In this document: in pieces, positions 1,112 to 29,288 of the stretch
How the letters are laid out: every line of letters starts with the position of its first letter
How positions within the stretch are numbered: the first letter of the stretch is position 1
Virus record (IMG/VR): IMGVR_UViG_3300048815_000026
Span: 5,311 to 69,310 of that record
Source: a virus
Reading direction: 5' to 3' (one strand)
Length of the DNA: 64,000 bases
The notes under the pieces: generated by a model
The model's database searches: none
What the model was told of the DNA's origin: nothing
The model's input: only the letters and a program-made list of their open reading frames with translations
Position numbers and translations under genes: made by a program

Positions 1112-1390
1112 GGGGACAGCTCCGCCGACAGGATTACTGCCAAGAATCGGTACTTAGGCCCCGTTTGGCATACGCGAGGTTTACTAACTCGACGCATCGT
1201 CAGCTAGGTTGTCGGACCGCGAAAGGCTGTGTGCAGTAAGTAATAAGCGCCTTGCGGTCGCAATTACCACACAATCCCGCTCGAGTGTACCCAGCTGGTA
1301 AACAAGAGTATCCCCAAATTGTGTAGCTTTTTCCATTTTTGGCGTGGACTTGCGCCACGGCAAGCGCCTTATTGCGCCACGGGCGCTTTT

Positions 1391-1717
1391 CTAGCCTTTG
1401 GCCGGCTCCAGCCATAGGGTCACGGCCCCGATCGACTCGTCCGTTCCCGCATCGAGCAGCGCATCGCGCATCGCCAACTCGGCCGGGCCGCCAGGGTCGA
1501 CCCGATGACACACCTCCGCCGCATCGGTGTATGTACGCAACACCGCAGCATGAACCCAGTCGTCGACGATGCGCGCTGCCATGTAGCGCAGAAAGCGCTC
1601 ATCGCCAGGCCCGCTCAGCGTAAGCGCGCGATAGCCAGGCCGCTCGCGAACATCCCCGCCCACCGGCCCACGATGCTGCCGGCTCCTCACTGCCGTCTTG
1701 TGCTCCCGCTGCCTCAT
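1391..1717 (-). CDS. hypothetical protein
   Basis: ATGA overlap with upstream stop at 1714-1717. Confidence 0.6.
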   Translation of the reverse strand: MRQREHKTAVRSRQHRGPVGGDVRERPGYRALTLSGPGDERFLRYMAARIVDDWVHAAVLRTYTDAAEVCHRVDPGGPAELAMRDALLDAGTDESIGAVTLWLEPAKG

Positions 1718-2211
1718 GACACCCCCGCCGCTCTCTTGGCCTCCCGATAGCGCTGCAGGCACACGCACGCCTTCATCGCCCGCTCGCCATTCAGGTGCAT
1801 CACCATGATCAACCCCTGGTTACCATGATCCGCGCATTCCGCGCATCCCACCTTGGGCAGATTCGCCCGCGCCTCCGCCTGCTTCTTTGCCTTCACCGCC
1901 TTAAGCTCCTTTTCCACCTCGGAAGGGTGGGGAAAAAACTTTTGTTTGCGCAAAAAGGCCAGCAGGACGTCCCGCAGTGGCTCCAGGCCGTATTCCATCG
2001 CCATGTCCGAATAGGCCAGCTGATACATGTCCCCCGTCTCCTCCGCTGTCTCCTGGTGGGGGAACGCCGCCGCCATCTGCATCAGCAGCAGCGCCGTTTG
2101 CCTCGCTGATTCGCGCCAACGCTCGCTCTCCTGCTGCACGGAAAGCTGCCTGGCTTCGCCGGACTCTGCCGACGGCGCCGCCCTCGCTGCGATTTGCCCC
2201 ACCCGGTCCAT
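1714..2211 (-). CDS. replication accessory protein (helicase loader/inhibitor-like) with C-terminal Zn finger
   Basis: Follows initiator; KFFPHPSEV motif; CAEC...CVC. Confidence 0.55.
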   Translation of the reverse strand: MDRVGQIAARAAPSAESGEARQLSVQQESERWRESARQTALLLMQMAAAFPHQETAEETGDMYQLAYSDMAMEYGLEPLRDVLLAFLRKQKFFPHPSEVEKELKAVKAKKQAEARANLPKVGCAECADHGNQGLIMVMHLNGERAMKACVCLQRYREAKRAAGVS

Positions 2212-2977
2212 TCCGTCCTCCCTTGTCCTGCTCCTTGCTCAGCCACTGGTTAAGAAACCGCGGCATGCCTTTGAACGTCTTCCGCCGCGTCGGATTGTCG
2301 ATCAGCCACTGCCGCGCCTTGCGCAGCTCGGCCATCACATCCACCCCCGGGTACGCCACTGTCCACTCGTCCACCTTGGCCTGGGTGAACCGCCAGCTCT
2401 TCTGGGCGCCCACACACGGGAGTGTGCCGAGAGGCGGAGCGGCGGCGCAGTGCTCGTCAGAGCTCTGCGCAATAGGTCTCCCTCTAACTACTCTCTCGGT
2501 TGTAACTACAGCCTCTTGTGTAACTGCTCTATATGCTTCTGCTTCTGCCTCTGCCTCTGATATGGGGTTATTTTGTGTGACTTCGTGTGACAAAGCGTTA
2601 CGTTTTGCGTTACGCACCCGCTCCCGGTGACGCGCCTGGCGGACGGCATTTCGTGCCCGCTGCGCCTCTTCGTCCTCCGTTTCCCGGTACTTGGTGTAAT
2701 TCAGCAACCGCCACCCGCCGTCCATCCTGGCGATCCGCCGGCCCTCGTTGTCTTCCGTGCGGCTGTACCGGTCTGGCGATTCCAACACCAGCAACGCCGC
2801 CTCGGTCTCCTCGATCGTCTTGCGCGCCTGATGCGCCAACCCGGGCACAGAAGCATGCACCCGGCCGTACGGATCCGCCAGGGCGAGCATCGTGATCCAC
2901 ACCAGACGCACCGAGTCCGGCTCGCTCCAAATAGTTGAGTTCAAGATGGTTGAGAACAGCTTCGTGTACCCAGGCAT
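1901..2977 (-). CDS. phage replication initiator / replisome organizer
   Basis: YTKLFSTILNSTIW...WRLLNYTKYR N-terminal domain, EAEAEA linker, YPGVDV...RKT...RFLNQWL C-terminal domain. Confidence 0.8.
   Translation of the reverse strand: MPGYTKLFSTILNSTIWSEPDSVRLVWITMLALADPYGRVHASVPGLAHQARKTIEETEAALLVLESPDRYSRTEDNEGRRIARMDGGWRLLNYTKYRETEDEEAQRARNAVRQARHRERVRNAKRNALSHEVTQNNPISEAEAEAEAYRAVTQEAVVTTERVVRGRPIAQSSDEHCAAAPPLGTLPCVGAQKSWRFTQAKVDEWTVAYPGVDVMAELRKARQWLIDNPTRRKTFKGMPRFLNQWLSKEQDKGGRNGPGGANRSEGGAVGRVRRSQAAFRAAGERALARISEANGAAADADGGGVPPPGDSGGDGGHVSAGLFGHGDGIRPGATAGRPAGLFAQTKVFSPPFRGGKGA
2470..2615. other. candidate replication origin inside initiator gene
   Basis: AT-richer patch with short repeats (GCGTTACG x2, TGTGAC x2, GTAACT x2), as in lambdoid initiator genes. 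Confidence 0.4.
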
Positions 2978-2980
2978 GGT

Positions 2981-3241
2981 TCAGACCGCCTTGTCTTTGA
3001 CCAAGTGCATCCCTTGGCGCTCGGCCACCAGCTTGTCCAGCCGCATTCGATACCGGCGGATGCCACGGCCGGCGAGGGAATCCAGACTATCCCTCTGCTC
3101 GCACAATAGCGACCAGACCAGGGCTTCCAGCTCGCTATGCCACAGTGGTTCACCCACCCCCAACAGGCGGACGATCAACTCGATCGCGCGCTCCTCGGAC
3201 TGCAGTGTTGGCTCCTCCACTCTCAATGCTTGTCCCTCCAT
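2981..3241 (-). CDS. hypothetical protein
   Basis: 86 aa ORF ending 3 nt before initiator start. Confidence 0.6.
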   Translation of the reverse strand: MEGQALRVEEPTLQSEERAIELIVRLLGVGEPLWHSELEALVWSLLCEQRDSLDSLAGRGIRRYRMRLDKLVAERQGMHLVKDKAV

Positions 3242-3411
3242 GAGTCAGCAAAGGGCAGAATAAATCCTGAAACTGACCTACCCAATTACTAACTTGGTTT
3301 GTGGAAGACCGGCACGGAACCAAAAACGCTGTAACTGGGTCACCAATGGACAACTTAGCGGCACTTACGACCCACGGCTGGGATGAAAAATAATTAATTT
3401 CCCACAGGCCG

Positions 3412-3439
3412 TTTACACGTTGTAGCAGCGTGCTATTAT
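3412..3439 (+). promoter_or_regulatory. sigma70-like early promoter
   Basis: TTTACA-16nt-TATTAT with extended TG and AT-rich UP-like element at 3386-3400. Confidence 0.6.
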
Positions 3440-3466
3440 TGAGCTGTAAGAGAAAGGAAAACGGAA

Positions 3467-3622
3467 ATGGAAAAGATCGAAGCCCTCCAAGCCGCCATCA
3501 TCGAGATCAACGAAGCCCAGAAGCAGGTAGCCAAGTTCCCGGCCATCTGGCAGAAACTGAAGCAGGTCGAAGACTATCTACAGGGCCAACTGAAACAAGC
3601 CGTCGACGCCATCGCCGCCTAA
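3467..3622 (+). CDS. small helical protein (51 aa, below ORF-track cutoff)
   Basis: AAGGA RBS; MEKIEALQAAIIEINEAQKQVAKFPAIWQKLKQVEDYLQGQLKQAVDAIAA. Confidence 0.7.
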   Translation: MEKIEALQAAIIEINEAQKQVAKFPAIWQKLKQVEDYLQGQLKQAVDAIAA

Positions 3623-5183: not shown

Positions 5184-5654
5184 ATGGACATCAGGCCTTA
5201 CAAGCAGTCGCTCCAGCCCGCCGAATCGGATGCCCCATCCGGTGGTAGTTTCCCGGCACCTGAACCCGAGCCATCGGGCTTTCCGGCTTTGGAGCGCCCT
5301 GCAAACGGGCGGTTAGCTCAGCGGTTAGTCCCCCTGCTCGCCAGCCGCTACATCGGCCATGACCCCAGCTGCCATTGCGACGGCTGCGACGGCATGCGCG
5401 CCTTCCAAATCCTCGAAGACATGCACCGCGCTTTTGGCCTGAAAACCGTGGCCGAGGTGGTCGCCGAGTGCCGCACTATCACCGACGAACAGCGCTCGCT
5501 CGCATGGTCCCCAGAGCCGCCGTACACGTCCCTGGGCGCCGGCGACTGCCGCATAGGCGGAAACTCCAGCCTCGACTTCAACGCCGAAACCCCGCGCGCC
5601 AAGTGGATCCGCGCCCGCTTCCGCATGCGGCGCGAGCAAAGGCGGCCGCAATGA
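5184..5654 (+). CDS. hypothetical protein
   Basis: GAGG RBS; HxxxCxCxxC motif. Confidence 0.55.
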   Translation: MDIRPYKQSLQPAESDAPSGGSFPAPEPEPSGFPALERPANGRLAQRLVPLLASRYIGHDPSCHCDGCDGMRAFQILEDMHRAFGLKTVAEVVAECRTITDEQRSLAWSPEPPYTSLGAGDCRIGGNSSLDFNAETPRAKWIRARFRMRREQRRPQ

Positions 5655-20876: not shown

Positions 20877-21163
20877 CCTACCATCCACGGCTAACCAAAT
20901 GCCCCGTCTGCGGAACAATGAAAAGTCCGCTGGCAACACTCTGCCACGGGTGCTATCGCATAGCGAGAAAAGCCGGTTGCAAAAACACCGGCGATATCCT
21001 GGCATTTGTCCGTTGGTTAGGAAGTTGGGAAAATACACTCGAGAGGAATCCATTCCTCAGTGCCGCCGAGGCCCCATCCCCATCCCCATCCGCCGCCGCC
21101 GGCCCAGCTGAATCGGTGCCTCTTCCTGGTCAATGCGGTCCTCCATCTGCTGCCAGCGAATAG
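20873..21163 (+). CDS. small Zn-finger protein overlapping terL 3' end
   Basis: CPVC..CHGC; GTGA overlap. Confidence 0.5.
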   Translation: MTYHPRLTKCPVCGTMKSPLATLCHGCYRIARKAGCKNTGDILAFVRWLGSWENTLERNPFLSAAEAPSPSPSAAAGPAESVPLPGQCGPPSAASE

Positions 21164-22622
21164 CCGCCGACCCCAGGTCCAGCCCGCGCACCGCATCCTG
21201 CAGCCGCATCTCCCGCGGCTTGGTCGCAAACTGCACAAACGTGTACAGCGCATAGCGCGTCTCGTCCGACACGTCGTCCAGCGGATCCCCGGCCACCTTC
21301 TTGATGTCTCCAGGCTTCACATCGTCGTGCATCCGGGTGCGCAGCGCCTCAAACGTCCGCGGGCACACATCGGTAATCTCAAACTCCCCCGAGCGCAGCA
21401 TCCGGTACAACAGCTGCCAGCCGCCCAGCCGGTCATTCGAAGCCCGCTCAAAGTGGATATCCCACGGCTCGAATATCTCGTTCACCTGGTCCGCAATCGT
21501 GTGCCCGTCGCCAATTTCCTTGAAGTTCGATGGATCCAGAAACCCGGCAATGATCCGCCGCCGCTCCCCACCCTCGGCCGGCTTCACAAAAGCCTCGATC
21601 GCCATCTGCGCCAACTCGTACGCCGGCACATGCGGCACCACCAACTCCCCAATCTTGCGGATCCGTCCTTCTGGAAAATACACCGCGTTGGTGTCCGGCA
21701 GCATTTCCCGGCGCACCCCGGGAATATGTAACTCCGGCGGCGCCGCTTCCCCCGGCCCGCGCACGTACAGCCCCACCGACGACGACGACTTGCCGTACCC
21801 AAAGTCCATCGATAGGAAATGGTTGTGCCACCACTCCACCCCGGCCTCGGCCAGCGGCTTGATCATCCCCCGGTGGAGAAAGGGAAAATACGCGCCCTCG
21901 AGCGTACACCAGCAGCCCTTCTCCATCGCGGCTGCGGCGCCCCCAGACATCATGTGCAGACGCTTGGAGTAATTCGCATCCAGCAAATTGTGGTCGGAAA
22001 GTTTGCCTGGAATGAAGGCCACGGAGAAGGGAATCGCCTCCCCATCGGAAGGCCAGAAGCGGTTCCAGTAGAGCTTGCCCGGCTGGGCGCACTCCTTCGG
22101 CGTATGCACCGGGCAGAACCCATGCAGGAACAGCGTCATGTGCCACGCCGCCCCGATGTTGCCCGGGTTCGACGTCAGCCGCATGCGCAGCCGCAGCGTC
22201 GAATCAGTCGAGCTCAAACGCCCCAGAATGTTGCGTACCTGCTTCTCCGAGTGCAGCGTAGACTCGTCAAAGCCGATGAACGAATAGCGCGGACCCAGGT
22301 ACTTCCACACGTCATCATCCGTCTTCATGTACGCAAACTGGATGGTGGCGCCGGAGGGAAACGTCCAGGTCCACTTCGGCGAGCCCACAAACACCCCGCC
22401 GAAGGGGGAATACAGCCGCTTGGTCTTATCGATGATGTCCGTCATCTCGACGAACGATGACCGGAAAACGATCCCCCGCAGGTTAGGGTTGTCGTACTCC
22501 TGCACCGCGTCCATGAGCATGGTCTCGGTCTTGAGCGACCCCGCGGACCCTCCAAACAGAAGAATATCGGCGCGGGAATCGAGCGCGTCCTTCTGGGCAG
22601 GTGTAGCCGGCTTCCAATCCAT
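21057..22622 (-). CDS. terL: terminase large subunit
   Basis: GGSAGSLKT Walker A, IGFDE Walker B, TSNPG motif III, MDFG...DDVSDETRY nuclease. Confidence 0.95.
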   Translation of the reverse strand: MDWKPATPAQKDALDSRADILLFGGSAGSLKTETMLMDAVQEYDNPNLRGIVFRSSFVEMTDIIDKTKRLYSPFGGVFVGSPKWTWTFPSGATIQFAYMKTDDDVWKYLGPRYSFIGFDESTLHSEKQVRNILGRLSSTDSTLRLRMRLTSNPGNIGAAWHMTLFLHGFCPVHTPKECAQPGKLYWNRFWPSDGEAIPFSVAFIPGKLSDHNLLDANYSKRLHMMSGGAAAAMEKGCWCTLEGAYFPFLHRGMIKPLAEAGVEWWHNHFLSMDFGYGKSSSSVGLYVRGPGEAAPPELHIPGVRREMLPDTNAVYFPEGRIRKIGELVVPHVPAYELAQMAIEAFVKPAEGGERRRIIAGFLDPSNFKEIGDGHTIADQVNEIFEPWDIHFERASNDRLGGWQLLYRMLRSGEFEITDVCPRTFEALRTRMHDDVKPGDIKKVAGDPLDDVSDETRYALYTFVQFATKPREMRLQDAVRGLDLGSAAIRWQQMEDRIDQEEAPIQLGRRRRMGMGMGPRRH

Positions 22623-22630
22623 TCAGCGAT

Positions 22631-23089
22631 TCACTGCACCGGGTCATCCCGCCAGGCCGAGCGGTAGAACGACGGCTTAGCCTTATCCGCCGGCGTCTCC
22701 TTGTACCCATCAATGCCCGGGTCCAGCACCTGCTCCGGCATCCATCCCAGGATCTTCGCCAGCACTTCAATCGCCCGGATCTGGCCCGCCACCGTGGGCT
22801 GGCCCCCATCCGCCTGGATGATCTTTACCAACGCCTCGACCGCGTCCGGCTTATCGAACTTGATCTTCTTGAGCGCGGCCGCGGACTCCTTCTTGAGCGC
22901 AGCATCGATCTCCGCCCGCAGCTTTTCCTGGTACTCCTTGAATTGCGGCTTCGCTATGTGCCGGCACAGCGTTCGCGGATCCATGCCCAGCTTGAGCGCC
23001 ACCGAGCGCCCCGAGGCCTTGCTATCCTCCACCAGCATGCGCGCCGCCACCATCTCCTGTGCGCTTAATGTCACCTTTTTTTTGTTCAC
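22631..23089 (-). CDS. terS: terminase small subunit
   Basis: HTH N-terminus, RAIEVLAKILG, directly upstream of terL; GTG 23089 preferred as start. Confidence 0.75.
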   Translation of the reverse strand: MNKKKVTLSAQEMVAARMLVEDSKASGRSVALKLGMDPRTLCRHIAKPQFKEYQEKLRAEIDAALKKESAAALKKIKFDKPDAVEALVKIIQADGGQPTVAGQIRAIEVLAKILGWMPEQVLDPGIDGYKETPADKAKPSFYRSAWRDDPVQ

Positions 23090-23110
23090 GCCCTGAAAGA
23101 CCTTTCCCTC

Positions 23111-23145
23111 AAATAGAAACGGCAGACCGAAGCCTGCCGTTTCTA
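23111..23145 (-). terminator. hairpin/terminator closing the pentamer array
   Basis: TAGAAACGGCAGGC-TTCG-GTCTGCCGTTTCTA-TTT. Confidence 0.8.
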
Positions 23146-23295
23146 CCATGCCAAACCAAACCAAGCCAAGCCACGCCGAGCCCTAACAGACCGTGCCCAG
23201 CCGAACCATGCCACGTGCCCTGCCAAGCCTTCACCTGGCCGCACCTGACCATAACTCGCCGGACCGTGCCACGGCATACCTCACCGGACCACACC
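23143..23295 (-). repeat. GGY-NN pentamer array (candidate non-contiguous guide RNA)
   Basis: 30 five-nt units, 27 starting GGT/GGC, variable dinucleotides; blocks of 13, 3 and 14 units. Confidence 0.9.
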
Positions 23296-23297
23296 TC

Positions 23298-23345
23298 TTA
23301 AAACTGCTGCACCTCGAAGTGGGTCTGCTGCAGCCGTAGCATCAT
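23298..23345 (-). pseudogene. 15-aa mini-ORF, possible remnant of array effector gene
   Basis: MMLRLQQTHFEVQQF; ATGA-coupled to upstream gene; stop 2 nt before array. Confidence 0.4.
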
Positions 23346-26300
23346 CTCTTCGCGACCGCTTCCTCCTCCAGTTCCTTGAGCTCGCTCTGCTTCACGGTGA
23401 TGTTCCGCCCGTCGTCAGTCTTGATGCGCGCAATCCGCTGCTCCGGATCCTGCCACGCAATCCGGCCTCGGGTGCCGTCCCGCAACCGCACCGCTACCCC
23501 ATTTTTGGAAGATTGAATGGTGCCTGGGCTTACTTCTGCCGGCCGGAGGGTTGCTCCAGCCGCTTCACTTCCCCGCTCAGCCGGTCCAGCTGCTCCTCCG
23601 AGAGTTTTGGATAAAGCCGCCCTGGCTTGCTCATAGGCTGCGGATTTGACTCCGTTTGCGTCTTTGCCGGCTGCAAGGTCGGCCGCGCCCCGGTTGAGGA
23701 TGTCATCGAGCGGTCCCGCTCGCGTACTGAGTCGGTCATAGAGCTCCTGTGCCTGCGCCGCACCCGCGGCGATCTTTGCATTCTCGGTTGTGTTGATTGT
23801 ATTGCCCGCCTGCGCCAGCGGAGCCACTTTATTTTCTTTAGAAACCCCCGCAAACAGGCGCCGCTCCTGCGAGATCCGCCGGCGGATGTACTGCGAAACC
23901 TCCGCCTTCTCCAGCATCAGGTTGCGCTTCATCTCCTGCGTGCCGAAAAGGCTCACCTGCGTGTCTGTGTGCTCGCCGGCGCCACGCGCCATGCGCGCCA
24001 TTTCGTCGACCACGTCGTCGGGAACCCGGCCGCCTTTGGCCTCCCGCGCCTCGATCGTTTTTAGAATCGCTTCCTGCTCGGCTGGGTTCTCGGTCGCCCT
24101 GCCAATCGCCACCGCACGGCTCTCCGGTATCTTGCCGGCGACCACGTCGTCAAAGATAGGACCGCTCAGCTTCGAGAGCGCCATCCCTTCCGACGCCAGC
24201 TTTTCCTTCAACGTAATCCCGCGCTTGGCCAGCGTTTCCGGCGTCGCCTCGGTGTCACGGAAGAATTTCGCCGCATCCACTGCGGTCCCTTTGCCCTGGG
24301 CAATATTCTGCATCGCCCCCACCACGCGCGCTTCGCCGGCGTCCTTCGCGCTCAGGATCGGCTTAGTGTCGATGTCCTCCACCCCGTTAGCTTTGGCCAG
24401 GTCGATGCGATGGTGACCGTTCACTACATACGTCTTTCCGTCCGCCGGATCCTGCCAGGTGGCGATCGCGTCCGCCAGGTCTTCGTTCCACTTCCGACCC
24501 TTGAGCGCATCGGTAACGCCGGCTTTGTCTGTCTTCAGCTTGAACTGGAAACGCTTCGGGTCGACCGCGATGTCAGACACACGCATGCGCTTGACTGTCG
24601 TGGCCGCGCCTGAATCTTTTGGGGGTGCGGAATTTTTAACAGGCGTTGTCGCGGCTGCGGGCGCAGCCGGCTTTTCTAGTACGGTACTTCGAAGTCCGCC
24701 GGCAGGTTGTTCATTCCGTCCACTGTTGCCTGGCCGATCCGATCCGCTACCTGAGCGTGCGTTAACTTCTCCGGTGGCATCTGTGGCTTTGGCTGCGGCA
24801 TAGATGTCGCTGGGGATCGGCTTTTCTCGATTGATCTGCTCGAGTCGCTCATTCATTGCCTCCGTGGTTCGCTCAGGCGTCCACTGCTGCTGAACCTTGC
24901 TGATGAACTCCGGGGTCCTGTCTTGATTATATAGTAGTTTTGCGCTGCCCCGTTCACCAGAGTTATCGATCGTTTGCACCTCCAGCTGGTCCCCAAAGTG
25001 CTGCATTAAGTGCTCTAAAACGTTGGGGATCTCACTATAGGCGTGCGCCATGTAGCTCAGCTGCACGGTGCGCCCGATGCGCCGCGCCCGGTCGATCATG
25101 CGCCCCACCGTCTTTGCCGGATCGTCCACGTAAGACCATAGAATGGTCGGCCGCCGCCCCGAATCGATGATTTGCTGCACCTTCTTCACCGCATCGGCCT
25201 GGTTGTCGAGAATGCTCTCCATGTCCAGGCCCACATGCCCCTCTCCCGGCGTGGTCAACCCCGTCGTCTTACCCGACCCTGGAGAGGCCGTCATAATACG
25301 CACGTCGGCTTTGCCCGGAGCCGGCGGCTTCTTCAACACCGTACGCAGCGAAGCATCCGCCACCTGGCTGGCCGCTGAGGCGACCAAGCGATCCTGGTTG
25401 GTCCGATCCTTCACATACTCAGGAAACTGCTCCTTGGCCGCGTCCGTGGCAATGTTAGGCACCCCATTCTTGGTGTTGGCCTTCAGGTAGTCCGCCACCA
25501 TCTGCGGGCCGTTCTCCTGCACACGCTGCTGGAACGCAGCCTCTTGGGCGGTTCCCGTATTGGAACGTTTGGCCTTGATCGGTGCAACATCCTCGGCCGT
25601 GTATCCCGGTGCAACCTCCACCCGCGCAGGCGCAGCTGGACTAGTTTCCGCGGGCTGAGCCGCTTCTGTCGCCGGCCTGCGCACTGGCTGCACGACCGGC
25701 CTCGGGCCGACTGGTTCCACAGCTGTGCCCGGATTCAGTTGCGGATAAGGCGCCCGCACTGCTGCGGGTCCAGGCCTCACTGGCACCAGAGGCGCATTAG
25801 CCCCTGCCCCGACAGCCCCCGCATTCCCCGTGGTGCCTACCTGCGTCCGCGCCGTCCTCGGCGTCACCGGCTGCACGTACTGCCCTGACAACCGCGTCGG
25901 CGAGGGCTCCGGCAAATTCGAAAAGAAATGCTGCAGCCCCTCTTGGATCGGCGTCATCGGCGTCGAGCCAAGGACTTTGTTGGCCACCAGTTTGGCTGCG
26001 CCCTTCATGAAGCCGCCGTCGACGCCCTTCAGCGCCTGCGCCGCCGTCTCCCGTGCGCTTAGCGGCTGTTCCGCGATCGCCTGCTGCTTGGCCATCCGCG
26101 GCGCCGCGTTCTGCAAGGCCTCCTGCGCCTTCAGCACGCTCGATTCCTGCCGCTTCAGCCACTGGAAATTCTGCCCCGTCGCCTGCTCCAGCTTCTGGTA
26201 GTACAAATCCCTGGTCGCTCCCAGCGCGTCCTCGAGGCCTTTAGTCACCGCGCCGGCGCGCCCAGCCGCCACAGTGTTCTTGGGAAACTGGTTGGCCAGC

Positions 26301-27451
26301 TCGCGGTTCAGCCACTGCCGCAAGTCGTTCAATCCCCCCAGCGTCTTCACTGTCCCCAGGCGCCGTTGCAGTTCCTTGATCTCCGCCGCATCCTCCGGCG
26401 CAAACTCCTCCAACGTCTCTGGGAACTTCACCGCGCTCTGCAACGGCGTGGGATCGACCGGCAAATCCTTCACCGGAGCCAACGTCTGCGCATGCGCCAC
26501 GTCGGTCTGCTCCTGCATCTTCTCGAGCACTGCCTGTGTCCGCGCTACCGCATCTTCCGGCGTCGCTGCCGTCGCCGGATTCAGTTCGGGATTGTCTGCC
26601 ACCACCTGGCGCAGACCACTCCCAATGTCCGTGGCAATTTCCTTGGGAAAGAAGCTGGTATCCCGAATAGTCCCGCGCGCCAAAACGCCCGCTAAAGACG
26701 CGTGCTGCGTAGCCGTATAGTTCTGCCCTACGATCTTCGGCTGCGGCTTAGCCCATGCCACCGCCGGCTCGACCACCTTGCCCAGCAGATAGCCGCCCAG
26801 CATTTGCCCGGCAGTGTTGGCCGGGTTGGCGGCCATCGCTACACCCTGCTCGCCGGCCTCCTGGCGCACGTCAGCGACCGCCTCAGCGTTCTGCGCGTCG
26901 ATCGTGGGGTTTCCCGTCACTGCCATCGCAGGGACGCCCAAGGCCGACCCTGAAGCCCCTCCAGCCATCAGTCCCTTGCCGGCTGCCTGCAGCGCCTCCC
27001 ACGGGTGCAGGACGGGGTTAACCAAGCCCTGCGCCGTACCTTGCCCAAACCGCTCCACCTGCCCACGCCAACCCGTGTCCGGAGTCGTGCCCGGCGCGGC
27101 CAGCTCCTCCGTGATCCGGTCGCGCCAGTTCTGCGGCGGAGTGGCCGCGGCAGGCTGCGAAGGGAGTCCGTCGGGGGCCTGGGCCGGCAGCACCGGAGCC
27201 GGCTGCAATCCGCCCGAGCCAAAATCAATCTGCCCCGACCGGTTCATCCCCGTACCCGGCACCGGAGGCGGATGCAGTTGGTCTCCGCCATACGCCGCGA
27301 ACGGGTTGACCGCCCCTGCCGCCGCCGGCGCAGGCAGGTCTGAAGTGCCCGTCACCGCCGTGTTATCGGGAGTCAGTACCCCGCCGCCATAACCCGCGAG
27401 TGGATCTTGATCCTGGGTCGTCTGGTCTGTCTGGTCTACCGTGGTGGTCAT
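23342..27451 (-). CDS. large ejection/polyvalent protein with zeta-toxin-like P-loop and ParB-like domains
   Basis: MTASPGSGKTT..MESIL; IAVDPKRFQFK..YVVNGHHR; located after other ejection genes. Confidence 0.75.
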   Translation of the reverse strand: MTTTVDQTDQTTQDQDPLAGYGGGVLTPDNTAVTGTSDLPAPAAAGAVNPFAAYGGDQLHPPPVPGTGMNRSGQIDFGSGGLQPAPVLPAQAPDGLPSQPAAATPPQNWRDRITEELAAPGTTPDTGWRGQVERFGQGTAQGLVNPVLHPWEALQAAGKGLMAGGASGSALGVPAMAVTGNPTIDAQNAEAVADVRQEAGEQGVAMAANPANTAGQMLGGYLLGKVVEPAVAWAKPQPKIVGQNYTATQHASLAGVLARGTIRDTSFFPKEIATDIGSGLRQVVADNPELNPATAATPEDAVARTQAVLEKMQEQTDVAHAQTLAPVKDLPVDPTPLQSAVKFPETLEEFAPEDAAEIKELQRRLGTVKTLGGLNDLRQWLNRELANQFPKNTVAAGRAGAVTKGLEDALGATRDLYYQKLEQATGQNFQWLKRQESSVLKAQEALQNAAPRMAKQQAIAEQPLSARETAAQALKGVDGGFMKGAAKLVANKVLGSTPMTPIQEGLQHFFSNLPEPSPTRLSGQYVQPVTPRTARTQVGTTGNAGAVGAGANAPLVPVRPGPAAVRAPYPQLNPGTAVEPVGPRPVVQPVRRPATEAAQPAETSPAAPARVEVAPGYTAEDVAPIKAKRSNTGTAQEAAFQQRVQENGPQMVADYLKANTKNGVPNIATDAAKEQFPEYVKDRTNQDRLVASAASQVADASLRTVLKKPPAPGKADVRIMTASPGSGKTTGLTTPGEGHVGLDMESILDNQADAVKKVQQIIDSGRRPTILWSYVDDPAKTVGRMIDRARRIGRTVQLSYMAHAYSEIPNVLEHLMQHFGDQLEVQTIDNSGERGSAKLLYNQDRTPEFISKVQQQWTPERTTEAMNERLEQINREKPIPSDIYAAAKATDATGEVNARSGSGSDRPGNSGRNEQPAGGLRSTVLEKPAAPAAATTPVKNSAPPKDSGAATTVKRMRVSDIAVDPKRFQFKLKTDKAGVTDALKGRKWNEDLADAIATWQDPADGKTYVVNGHHRIDLAKANGVEDIDTKPILSAKDAGEARVVGAMQNIAQGKGTAVDAAKFFRDTEATPETLAKRGITLKEKLASEGMALSKLSGPIFDDVVAGKIPESRAVAIGRATENPAEQEAILKTIEAREAKGGRVPDDVVDEMARMARGAGEHTDTQVSLFGTQEMKRNLMLEKAEVSQYIRRRISQERRLFAGVSKENKVAPLAQAGNTINTTENAKIAAGAAQAQELYDRLSTRAGPLDDILNRGAADLAAGKDANGVKSAAYEQARAALSKTLGGAAGPAERGSEAAGATLRPAEVSPGTIQSSKNGVAVRLRDGTRGRIAWQDPEQRIARIKTDDGRNITVKQSELKELEEEAVAKR

Positions 27452-27452
27452 C

Positions 27453-29288
27453 CTAGAAAACCTTCGCCCCCGGGTTGTCCTTCAAAAACCGTTCCTTCTG
27501 CTTTGGGTCGATGTGCCCATACCGCCCATCCTTCAGCTGCACCCCAACCTGCCCCGCCGGAATCTTGATGTTCTCCGGCCACCCATTCGGCTGATGTCTG
27601 CCGCCGCCTGTGGTATGCACCTGGTGCCCACCCTGCACCCCGGGAATGCCCTCCGCCAGCCGCCGCGTGGTCGCGTGAATCTGGTTGGTCTGCCGCAGAA
27701 AGTAATCCAGGTCCGGCGTCGAAGCATTCGGCAGCATATCCAACAGCCGGTTGACCTGAGATTCGGTCGCCCCCGGCAGCCCGCCCGCCTTGCGCATCGC
27801 CTGCAAATTCTCCCGCGCCGAAACCAGGCCGATTACATAGTTCCTCTGCTCCGGCGAAAGATTCGATTTCGCCAACTGCCCCTGAACCCACTGCGTTGCC
27901 GTCCCCTCCGGCTGCGCCAGCGCCGCGGCCACCAGCGTGTTGTCGATCCGCTGACCCTTGGCGGACATAGCCCTGGCCGCCTGCTCCAGAGTGTCGAGCG
28001 ATCCGCTCACATCGTTGAACTGCGCCACCTGCGCCTGGTTCTTTGAGGCCTGCGATTGGAACGCCGTGCCCACCCCCGTCGTGTTCCCCTGGTCATCGGT
28101 CAACTCCGTCCGCCCAGGCAAACCATGGCCCTGCAGATCCGTGCCCTTGGCCGCCAGCAAATAGCGCCCATAGTAGGCCTGCGCCCGCTCGCCCTCGACC
28201 GCAATCTGCTGCTGCCGCTGGTTCCATGCCGGCGTCCCCGGAGTGATCTTCTCCTGCTCGATCTCGGTCTTCCATTTGGCGATCTTGGCCATCGAATCGC
28301 GGTACTGGTTCAGCGCCACCCGTGACTGCGTGACCACCGAATCGGGATCCTCGACAATCGATTTCTCTCCCGTGGCCGGGTCCGTAACCACCTTCATCCC
28401 CTTGGAAGGGGCCTCGTCAATATCCTTCTGCTGGATGCCCTGAATCCGCAGATGCCCCGTCGTCGCCGCCCTGGTGATGCCGCCCAGGTCCGCCGGCCGG
28501 TACGTCGCGCCCACGATCAAATCGGGATTCTGCGCATGCATCTCCGGGGTGACAATCTCCGGCTCCATACCCTGCGCCTTGGCCGCATCCAGCGCGGTCT
28601 TCTGCTGCGTCTCCGCCAGGTTCGCCGAGGCCGCCTGCTGCGCCTGCTCGTTGCCGATCAGTTGTTGCTCCCGGCCCACCAACAGTTGATGGTGCCCCTC
28701 GGTCCCACCCACCAACGGCTCAATCCCCGGGAGTATCGCGGCCAGCGTGTCGTCGCCAATCCGCGCCAGCACCCGCTTTACCGGGCTCTTGATCTGCGAA
28801 ATCCCGCTCCCTGTCGAGGTCAGCCGCGCCAGCTCTGCCTGCTCCCGGTCCAACGTGGACGGCCCCTGCACTGGCTGCACTCCGCCCTGAGGAATCGCCG
28901 GCATCACCGGCGTTGTCCCACCCGGCCGCGCAAAACCGCCCGGATCCGGATTCGCCGGATCGGCCGCCGGAGCCAGCTGCGAAGCCGCGTACGCCGCTGG
29001 GCCACCTGATGCGTTGTAGTCAGCCGTCCTTTGCTGAAACGCCCCCGCCAGGCCAGCCCGCTTCGGCTCTGCCTGCGATGGCGGCGTCTTGATAGATCCG
29101 CTCTGCGGCGTCGTCTGCCCGGCCGAGGTCTGCGGCGCCGTGTTGGGCGGCGGCATCACCAAAGCCTGCGCCGGCGCAGGGCTGGCAAACCCGGCAATCT
29201 GCCGGTCTACATCATCGGCGTCGTCGTCCTGGCCCGGCCAATACGACGGGTTCGTCAGCATCTGCGTTCCGCCCATTAGTTCGTCCAC
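27453..29288 (-). CDS. putative DNA ejection / internal virion protein
   Basis: Q/A/G-rich helical 611 aa protein in podovirus ejection slot. Confidence 0.65.
   Translation of the reverse strand: MDELMGGTQMLTNPSYWPGQDDDADDVDRQIAGFASPAPAQALVMPPPNTAPQTSAGQTTPQSGSIKTPPSQAEPKRAGLAGAFQQRTADYNASGGPAAYAASQLAPAADPANPDPGGFARPGGTTPVMPAIPQGGVQPVQGPSTLDREQAELARLTSTGSGISQIKSPVKRVLARIGDDTLAAILPGIEPLVGGTEGHHQLLVGREQQLIGNEQAQQAASANLAETQQKTALDAAKAQGMEPEIVTPEMHAQNPDLIVGATYRPADLGGITRAATTGHLRIQGIQQKDIDEAPSKGMKVVTDPATGEKSIVEDPDSVVTQSRVALNQYRDSMAKIAKWKTEIEQEKITPGTPAWNQRQQQIAVEGERAQAYYGRYLLAAKGTDLQGHGLPGRTELTDDQGNTTGVGTAFQSQASKNQAQVAQFNDVSGSLDTLEQAARAMSAKGQRIDNTLVAAALAQPEGTATQWVQGQLAKSNLSPEQRNYVIGLVSARENLQAMRKAGGLPGATESQVNRLLDMLPNASTPDLDYFLRQTNQIHATTRRLAEGIPGVQGGHQVHTTGGGRHQPNGWPENIKIPAGQVGVQLKDGRYGHIDPKQKERFLKDNPGAKVF

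Follow-up and report, generated by a model that had tools for sequence, protein, structure and literature searches.

A predicted solo VIPR guide-RNA array upstream of the small terminase gene of a peat phage, with a terS start as candidate target

VIPR combines phage-borne Vipr proteins, which are small RAMPs, with guide RNAs (vrRNAs) (10.64898/2026.04.26.720920). The Vipr fold includes a G-loop and a thumb. In that report, a vrRNA comprises 9-16 YNNGG repeats followed by a structured 3' tail and is recognized as a discrete RNA of ~100 nucleotides (nt) that co-purifies with Vipr. Its NN pairs read double-stranded DNA (dsDNA) on either strand, one base being skipped per unit, usually a codon wobble position; natural targets were accepted at an NN match of at least 80%, and no guide reached that level on its own contig. 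The structural report assigns one Vipr protomer to each repeat and describes a filament on dsDNA that extends from the tail end towards the 5' end (10.64898/2026.04.26.720927). Solo vrRNAs, defined by a contig devoid of any Vipr match or with the nearest one more than 20 kb away, are reported from satellites and from 346 VIPR-null phages; there, Vipr must come in trans, and self-match scores are lower than the scores on rivals (10.64898/2026.10.15.759431). VIPR was described in 2026, and its natural targets so far belong to a few enterobacterial and Pseudomonas clades. Virus-borne orphan CRISPR mini-arrays also target related viruses with an effector supplied by another genome; these hold contiguous spacers between repeats, rely on host Cas effectors and have no dinucleotide code. 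Here we analyze a 64,000-nt stretch of viral DNA (the window, positions 5,311 to 69,310 of IMG/VR record IMGVR_UViG_3300048815_000026; coordinates below are those of the window), in which an array of GGY-NN pentamers lies on the minus strand directly upstream of terS, the small terminase gene. As judged from its sequence, this element (23112-23297, -) is a solo, vipr-less VIPR guide-RNA array, and one of its two guide blocks finds its best partner at the start of the neighboring terS.

The record represents the complete 69,310-bp genome of a peat phage, with 127-bp terminal repeats and 62% G+C, and contains a single copy of the array. Positions 23143-23297 hold ~30 GGY-NN pentamers, which are followed by a 16-bp UUCG hairpin. 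Block 1 (23231..23297, -) consists of 14 NN-GGY pentamers with the dinucleotides, in RNA sense, GA GT CC GA AT GT AC CC GA AT CA GC CA GA. Two of its 14 triplets deviate from GGY (GCC and GTT), and it runs into an irregular inter-block junction (23213..23230, -) made up of a +1 nt register shift, three units (NN = TT AG AC) and two extra nt (GT). Adding the junction units to the guide extended the target match of neither block under 1-nt-skip scoring. Block 2 (23143..23212, -) reads back as the 14 GGY-NN units of the preliminary description, at the position and with the code given there; GGY is found in 13 of its 14 triplets (12 of the 13 in free units), the single exception being GTT. The dinucleotides of all units, reverse-complemented, are CT AT AA AA AA AA AC GA CT AG GT CA GA AT. 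Because unit 14 (GGT-AG) sits within the tail stem, whose 5' arm it opens, block 2 counts as 13 free dinucleotides (23148..23212), AT TC TG AC CT AG TC GT TT TT TT TT AT. The predicted vrRNA 3' tail (23112..23147, -) forms a UUCG-capped stem of 16 bp (-25.9 kcal/mol, z = -5.29), a stability that none of 200 shuffled sequences attained. There is no U-tract 3' of the stem and a terminator scan did not call the hairpin; the Rfam scan returned no family for the array region and the transfer RNA scan returned no hit. Conserved GGY, free NN and a unit number within 9-16 per guide, the pentamer grammar of vrRNAs, are thus all present.

No effector gene is detected. Vipr has no Pfam family and is represented in the PDB by entry 36pp_D. 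We searched with the SUSP1 Vipr and with a profile of 32 homologues, which include Gordonia, Rhodococcus, Streptomyces and Xanthomonadaceae entries and share 37-91% identity with the first sequence of the profile, a Vipr from a SUSP1-like phage that is nearly identical to the SUSP1 one. Neither returned anything in the complete genome, a negative that holds for SUSP1-type vipr only, the profile being type-II-based: hmmsearch at full sensitivity on 608 open reading frames (ORFs) gave a best E-value of 0.33, and hhalign against 40 called ORFs gave at most 2.4% probability. As a positive control, the same profile recovers the SUSP1 vipr at E 1.2e-83. Pfam and PHROGs leave at least seven of the Vipr-sized ORFs (150-260 residues) without annotation, none of which displays, by eye, the C-terminal glycine-loop motif. 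Since the complete record contains no Vipr match, the element is a solo vrRNA by the published definition. It belongs to a kind already known, if very recently published; of some interest are its peat habitat and its G+C content, a tail that is a plain hairpin and serves two adjoining blocks, and the candidate target class, terS.

One locus for comparison is the type II VIPR locus of Escherichia phage SUSP1 (KT454805.2), comprising vipr (28474-29061), vap1 and four vrRNAs. The SUSP1 arrays and the array analyzed here share their pentamer grammar, guides of 12-15 units, the 1-nt skip on the wobble position and a 3' tail, predicted in the present case, right after the last unit. However, the SUSP1 tail is a hairpin-plus-pseudoknot, as compared with the plain 16-bp UUCG hairpin found here, and each SUSP1 guide possesses its own tail, whereas here the blocks abut with register shifts and no Vipr homologue is found. 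Another layout for comparison is that of the staggered arrays of other VIPR types, in which, according to the fig. S18 legend of 10.64898/2026.04.26.720920, guides follow each other head-to-tail without tails between them and with register-offset boundaries. The +1 and +2 nt shifts of the junction, together with one tail for ~30 units, may represent such a staggered layout, although the staggered arrays of that report lie in vipr-bearing loci and the present array is devoid of a detected vipr. In this last respect the array resembles the solo vrRNAs of VIPR-null SUSP1-family phages and F5 satellites, as described in 10.64898/2026.10.15.759431: GGY-NN units followed by a structured tail (predicted here), no vipr found (nor, in the published cases, a vap gene), a Vipr presumed to be borrowed in trans and, for block 2, a self-match below the targeting level. 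It differs from the solo vrRNAs presented there by its two guide blocks on one tail, its 62%-G+C peat phage genome and the lack of a known VIPR-positive partner with the same tail. In IMG/VR, the collection searched for this purpose, no VIPR-positive element sharing the tail was found, the single other match to the stem arms being an unrelated AT-rich palindrome. Finally, the published solo guides target vipr genes, other vrRNAs, satellites and host REP decoys, whereas the candidate target here is the start of a small terminase gene.

Scoring block 2 at all positions on both strands of the window, with two bases paired and one skipped, reports the terS start as the best site (23052..23092, -), with 19 of 28 bases and 8 of 14 units exact; three runner-up sites reach 17/28. 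This reproduces the match that the preliminary description had drawn, including its codon frame. The skipped bases coincide with the codon wobble positions, unit 2 (AT) falls on the GTG start codon, and the 13 free units span exactly terS codons 1-13, from the start codon to Met13 (19/26). The partial target as a whole (23051..23092, -) covers three nt before the start codon and codons 1-13, from the GTG (23089..23087) through Met13, and lies 51 nt from the array. It had been proposed that a match explained by the run of adenines alone would refute the assignment. Among the 21 sites of the genome that match the four AA units with at least 7 of 8 bases, the terS start is the sole one with 8/8, and in the other ten units it matches 11 of 20 bases, the next best of these sites reaching 8/20. 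The background probability of at least 11/20 is 0.0026 per site, or ~0.055 when allowing for the 21 sites. The terS match is not explained by the A-run alone. Proximity to the array, frame and start-codon alignment were left out of the probability because they were noticed post hoc.

The terS gene (22631..23089, -) encodes a 152-residue protein with an N-terminal helix-turn-helix (HTH), as indicated by Pfam (HTH_Tnp_1_2, E 1.1e-05, 26.0 bits, below the cut-off of 27.9). It lies directly upstream of terL (21057-22622, -), whose product returns a weak Terminase_6N match; a gene for a small HTH protein ending 8 nt before terL is what is expected of a small terminase gene. Fourteen aligned homologues point to the GTG at 23089 as the start codon. 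The recorded protein (P0003, 172 residues; 22631-23164, -) begins at an ATG inside the array and its hairpin, and since the 14 homologues align with the GTG, the public gene call is probably over-extended by 20 codons. Relatives of TerS are rare: a search of 1.84 billion representative proteins returned 28 matches at E <= 0.001, of which ~20 have the size of a TerS, and an index of 5.8 billion proteins gave a single one, at 46% identity. Their N-termini are exemplified by MTTEKTELTAQEM (P0005), MKKKMGDLTAQEM (P0015), MSPKKLELTAQEM (P0024) and MKAVKKEMSTQDM (P0004).

Read as codons with free third positions, block 2 becomes ATx AAx AAx AAx AAx ACx GAx CTx AGx GTx CAx GAx AT, which encodes M-(K/N)4-T-(D/E)-L-(S/R)-V-(Q/H)-(D/E)-(M/I), as compared with V-N-K-K-K-V-T-L-S-A-Q-E-M for codons 1-13 of the resident terS. 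Scored on the first two codon bases implied by their residues, P0005 and P0015 reach 20-21/26, versus 19/26 for the real sequence of the resident gene. In a shuffle test on the family (15 TerS homologues, self excluded, any register in the first 25 residues), a score of 21 was reached by none of 5000 shuffled guides and a score of 20 by four of them. Since this test is not independent of the self match, a second one kept the eight self-identical units constant and scored every one of the 759,375 possible replacements of the remaining five: between 0.25% (most favorable codon choice) and 0.54% (least favorable) do as well as the guide. As far as these sequences tell, the guide appears to deviate from self mostly towards the TerS family, with ATG for GTG and T-E-L for V-T-L, at a conditional P of 0.0025-0.047 whose upper part corresponds to ignoring the start-codon unit (0.023-0.047). 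The family-like differences are not what random decay of a self-guide would give.

The closest relatives by TerL are two IMG/VR phages (L044 and L045) with a TerL 80% identical to that of the peat phage, of which 36-45 kb each, or 51-63% of a genome, are available. Their synteny is partial and comprises a homologue of the 274-residue protein (77% identity), pieces of the 611-residue protein, the C-terminal 38 residues of the 1369-residue protein, the small terminase and terL. Neither possesses an array at the syntenic junction or a Vipr in the 36-45 kb. Their small terminase (6347-6740 in L044) shares a C-terminal YxSAWM motif with the present TerS and has an unrelated N-terminus without the HTH start; it begins with MNKQPMPPG and matches block 2 at no more than 15/28. 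As the N-termini differ, terS N-terminal alleles vary among siblings, the sampled variant not being the one spelled by the guide. This suggests, on the sequences compared, that sibling phages swap the DNA-recognition part of TerS as a module. The earlier expectation that a relative would match better than self is borne out marginally and at the protein level by the distant homologues P0005 and P0015, and not by L044 and L045.

Block 1 behaves differently. Its best site (28528..28568, +), obtained with the 1-nt-skip scan, scores 24/28 with 11 consecutive perfect units, a score reached by none of 300 shuffled guides. The site lies inside the 611-residue ORF (27453-29288, -) and starts from an in-frame internal ATG (Met241). 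This self match exceeds the 80% level, at which the published guide sets gave no self hits. The two blocks pair with opposite strands relative to the messenger RNAs, as the preliminary description had stated, and targets on either strand fit the dsDNA recognition of the VIPR reports, in agreement with its preference for dsDNA over RNA as the substrate. Of its other proposals, that of an immune self copy does not hold for block 1, whose own gene is matched at 24/28, and would be compatible with the block 2 self match, which lies under the 80% level. An RNA-guided homing cassette finds no support: no vipr or nuclease gene was found adjoining the array, and the block 1 self site is not protected.

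The real target allele of block 2 was looked for by exact pattern scans, allowing no mismatches, with five parts of the guide in IMG/VR, JGI metagenome contigs and GTDB genomes; in none of these collections was the predicted allele found at a terS start. The first guide patterns returned 0 matches in IMG/VR and 0 in GTDB genomes. The sole match of one scan, the metagenome contig L011, scores 23/28 with 20 of the 28 bases fixed in advance by the search pattern; it is on the antisense strand of a gene for a small membrane protein, its skip is off the wobble position, and it was judged a chance match. A further IMG/VR scan gave 22 loci, none of them at a terS start. L032 and L011 give the only matches to at least 80% of the NN positions, and the best foreign site of these scans is in L032, an IMG/VR contig with 34% G+C (25/28, minus strand, in a 744-residue ORF at 1340-3574). 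The L032 peptide at the match, MKKKVTELSVHEM, resembles the HTH start of the TerS family. As a target this contig was set aside as a chance match as well, the site containing 15 adenines in 28 bases and the collection being large, by a rough estimate rather than a computed value. The L024 match (21/28) lies at the C-terminus of a 125-residue ORF whose product resembles, by eye, a LuxR-type HTH protein. Additional scans gave one and six loci at 20-22/28, with 20 bases forced by the pattern and 28-50% G+C, and the homologue N-terminus motif pattern gave nine loci, all of them internal motifs of other proteins (14-18/26). At the protein level, the single-protein TerS search of IMG/VR confirmed 0 of 28 candidate stretches, a two-sequence alignment confirmed 0 of 592 candidates in metagenome contigs, and the 15-sequence alignment returned one IMG/VR locus (L012), which is short at the N-terminus and devoid of an array.

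We give about even credence to the reading in which block 2 targets the 5' end of terS in a sibling phage, with the resident allele under the acting threshold. Its NN pairs would read dsDNA two bases at a time, with each third base skipped, and would encode the first 13 codons of an HTH-TerS allele of the same family other than the resident one. The guide would sit on the 5' end of the sibling's terS and block its transcription, and with it DNA packaging, while the resident terS (19/26-19/28) would stay below the match level at which published vrRNAs act. For this to operate, we infer that the RNA is expressed and processed, that Vipr is supplied in trans, that the targeted allele exists and that self is immune. 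Of the earlier proposal that the guide targets terS of a rival phage, the lean of the differences towards residues of TerS homologues stands, and a relative with the predicted allele is what the collections did not return. A number of further results weigh against this reading. The raw score of 19/28 is not significant genome-wide, since a score at least as high arises somewhere in the 69.3-kb genome with 105 of 600 guides shuffled by unit (0.175) and with 67 of 600 shuffled by base (0.112). The self match, whose skipped bases are wobble positions, covers 68% of the NN bases (73% once the tail unit is dropped), under the published 80% target cut-off, which block 1 passes on its own genome. That 24/28 self match of block 1 misfits a simple picture of a weapon with an immune self. 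By residue class no homologue exceeds self (9/13 for self and P0015, 8/13 each for P0004, P0005 and P0024), the homologue scores come from protein sequence and not from homologue DNA, terS was picked for the family test after the match had been seen, and the conditional P rises as stated once the start codon is ignored. Protein searches gave TerS homologues at 46% identity or less only, tblastn of TerS against 50,697 phage records gave no match, and the type-II base of the Vipr profile narrows what its silence says.

We consider possible, though on the unlikely side, a rival in which the array would be a real solo vrRNA whose resemblance to terS is coincidental, the U-run of the guide meeting a Lys-rich, A-rich gene start, with the true target in an unsampled element or host. 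That 11-18% of shuffle trials reach 19/28, that the score is below the cut-off of the VIPR papers, that the pattern scans found no terS allele with a better DNA match and that the unrelated L032 scores higher all fit this view, the latter because high scores arise by chance when an A-rich guide is run against large collections. It fits less well with a best site 51 nt from the array whose codon frame and start codon both line up with the guide, with the matches outside the A-run (P = 0.0026 per site) and with differing units that are family-typical (P = 0.0025-0.047). Alternatively, the guide could be aimed at or derived from its own lineage, either for self-regulation, with weak binding to its own terS start much as block 1 may bind its own gene, or because the array recombined in from a VIPR-positive enemy, with subsequent escape of terS and loss of vipr. 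The 11 perfect consecutive units of block 1 on its own genome speak for this, as do a genome without detected vipr, the syntenic junction of relatives without the array and the five free tail-proximal units of block 2, which match the own terS with 9 of 10 bases, filament growth on dsDNA starting at the tail end (10.64898/2026.04.26.720927). However, two central units of block 2 match self at none of their four bases (0/4), the published guide sets show no self hit of at least 80% (10.64898/2026.04.26.720920), random decay from a self match would not yield family-like differing units, and self-regulation is impossible without an own Vipr; we regard this explanation as quite improbable. An initial reading without any guide RNA, in which the 5-bp periodic repeat is a protein-binding DNA or RNA site (a TerS/pac recognition array or, in the terS leader, a TRAP-like attenuator), drew on a position immediately upstream of the gene and on the hairpin that separates the two. 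It was dropped in view of the VIPR grammar and the block 1 match, and is now highly improbable: the repeat grammar of fixed GGY and free NN, in 13-14 units per block with a structured 3' tail, is the published vrRNA one, the best block 1 match includes 11 perfect consecutive units in coding frame with a score absent from 300 shuffles, relatives with an 80%-identical TerL lack such a repeat, and no Rfam family matches.

A more specific form of the sibling-terS reading, in which a borrowed Vipr would silence the HTH end of a sibling's terS and so stop the rival's packaging, and in which the own terS, with its different N-terminal coding sequence, would be the resistant allele linked to the guide, in the manner of a weapon-and-immunity pair, appears rather doubtful. 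Should it be true, the packaging specificity module would be a direct object of RNA-guided phage-phage conflict, in a habitat and host range remote from those of the enterobacterial systems. If block 2 is indeed a guide against a sibling's terS, the "guns for hire" picture would extend, through an uncultured peat phage, to new hosts and to a new target class, DNA packaging, and it would suggest that guides and resistant alleles are inherited together. At present the locus provides a well-formed example of a vrRNA, a target that is suggestive but unproven, and a search pattern for peat viromes.

Regarding the genomic setting, the array is flanked by terS and by the gene of the 1369-residue protein (23342-27451, -). 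The 250-nt gap between the stop of the latter (23342) and the terS GTG (23089) contains a mini-ORF, block 1, the junction and block 2; the mini-ORF (23298..23345, -) encodes 15 residues (MMLRLQQTHFEVQQF), overlaps the stop of the 1369-residue gene and ends just 5' of the array. Contigs from one peat RNA library cover 22808-23161 and 23265-23471 with no differences, which reports presence only and not transcription, strand or ends; their lack over 23162-23264 is a hole in contig cover without evidential weight. A DNA run of a separate study gives contig cover of 23056-23206. The 1369-residue protein returns a sub-threshold match to Zeta_toxin, a P-loop kinase family (residues 744-844, 16.5 bits versus a cut-off of 22.3), and its last 38 residues are conserved in far shorter proteins at the same position in relatives. 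Lastly, terS and terL form the 3' end of a long minus-strand block (21057-64000) of large, mostly structural-looking genes that converges on plus-strand early genes, an unusual place for packaging genes.

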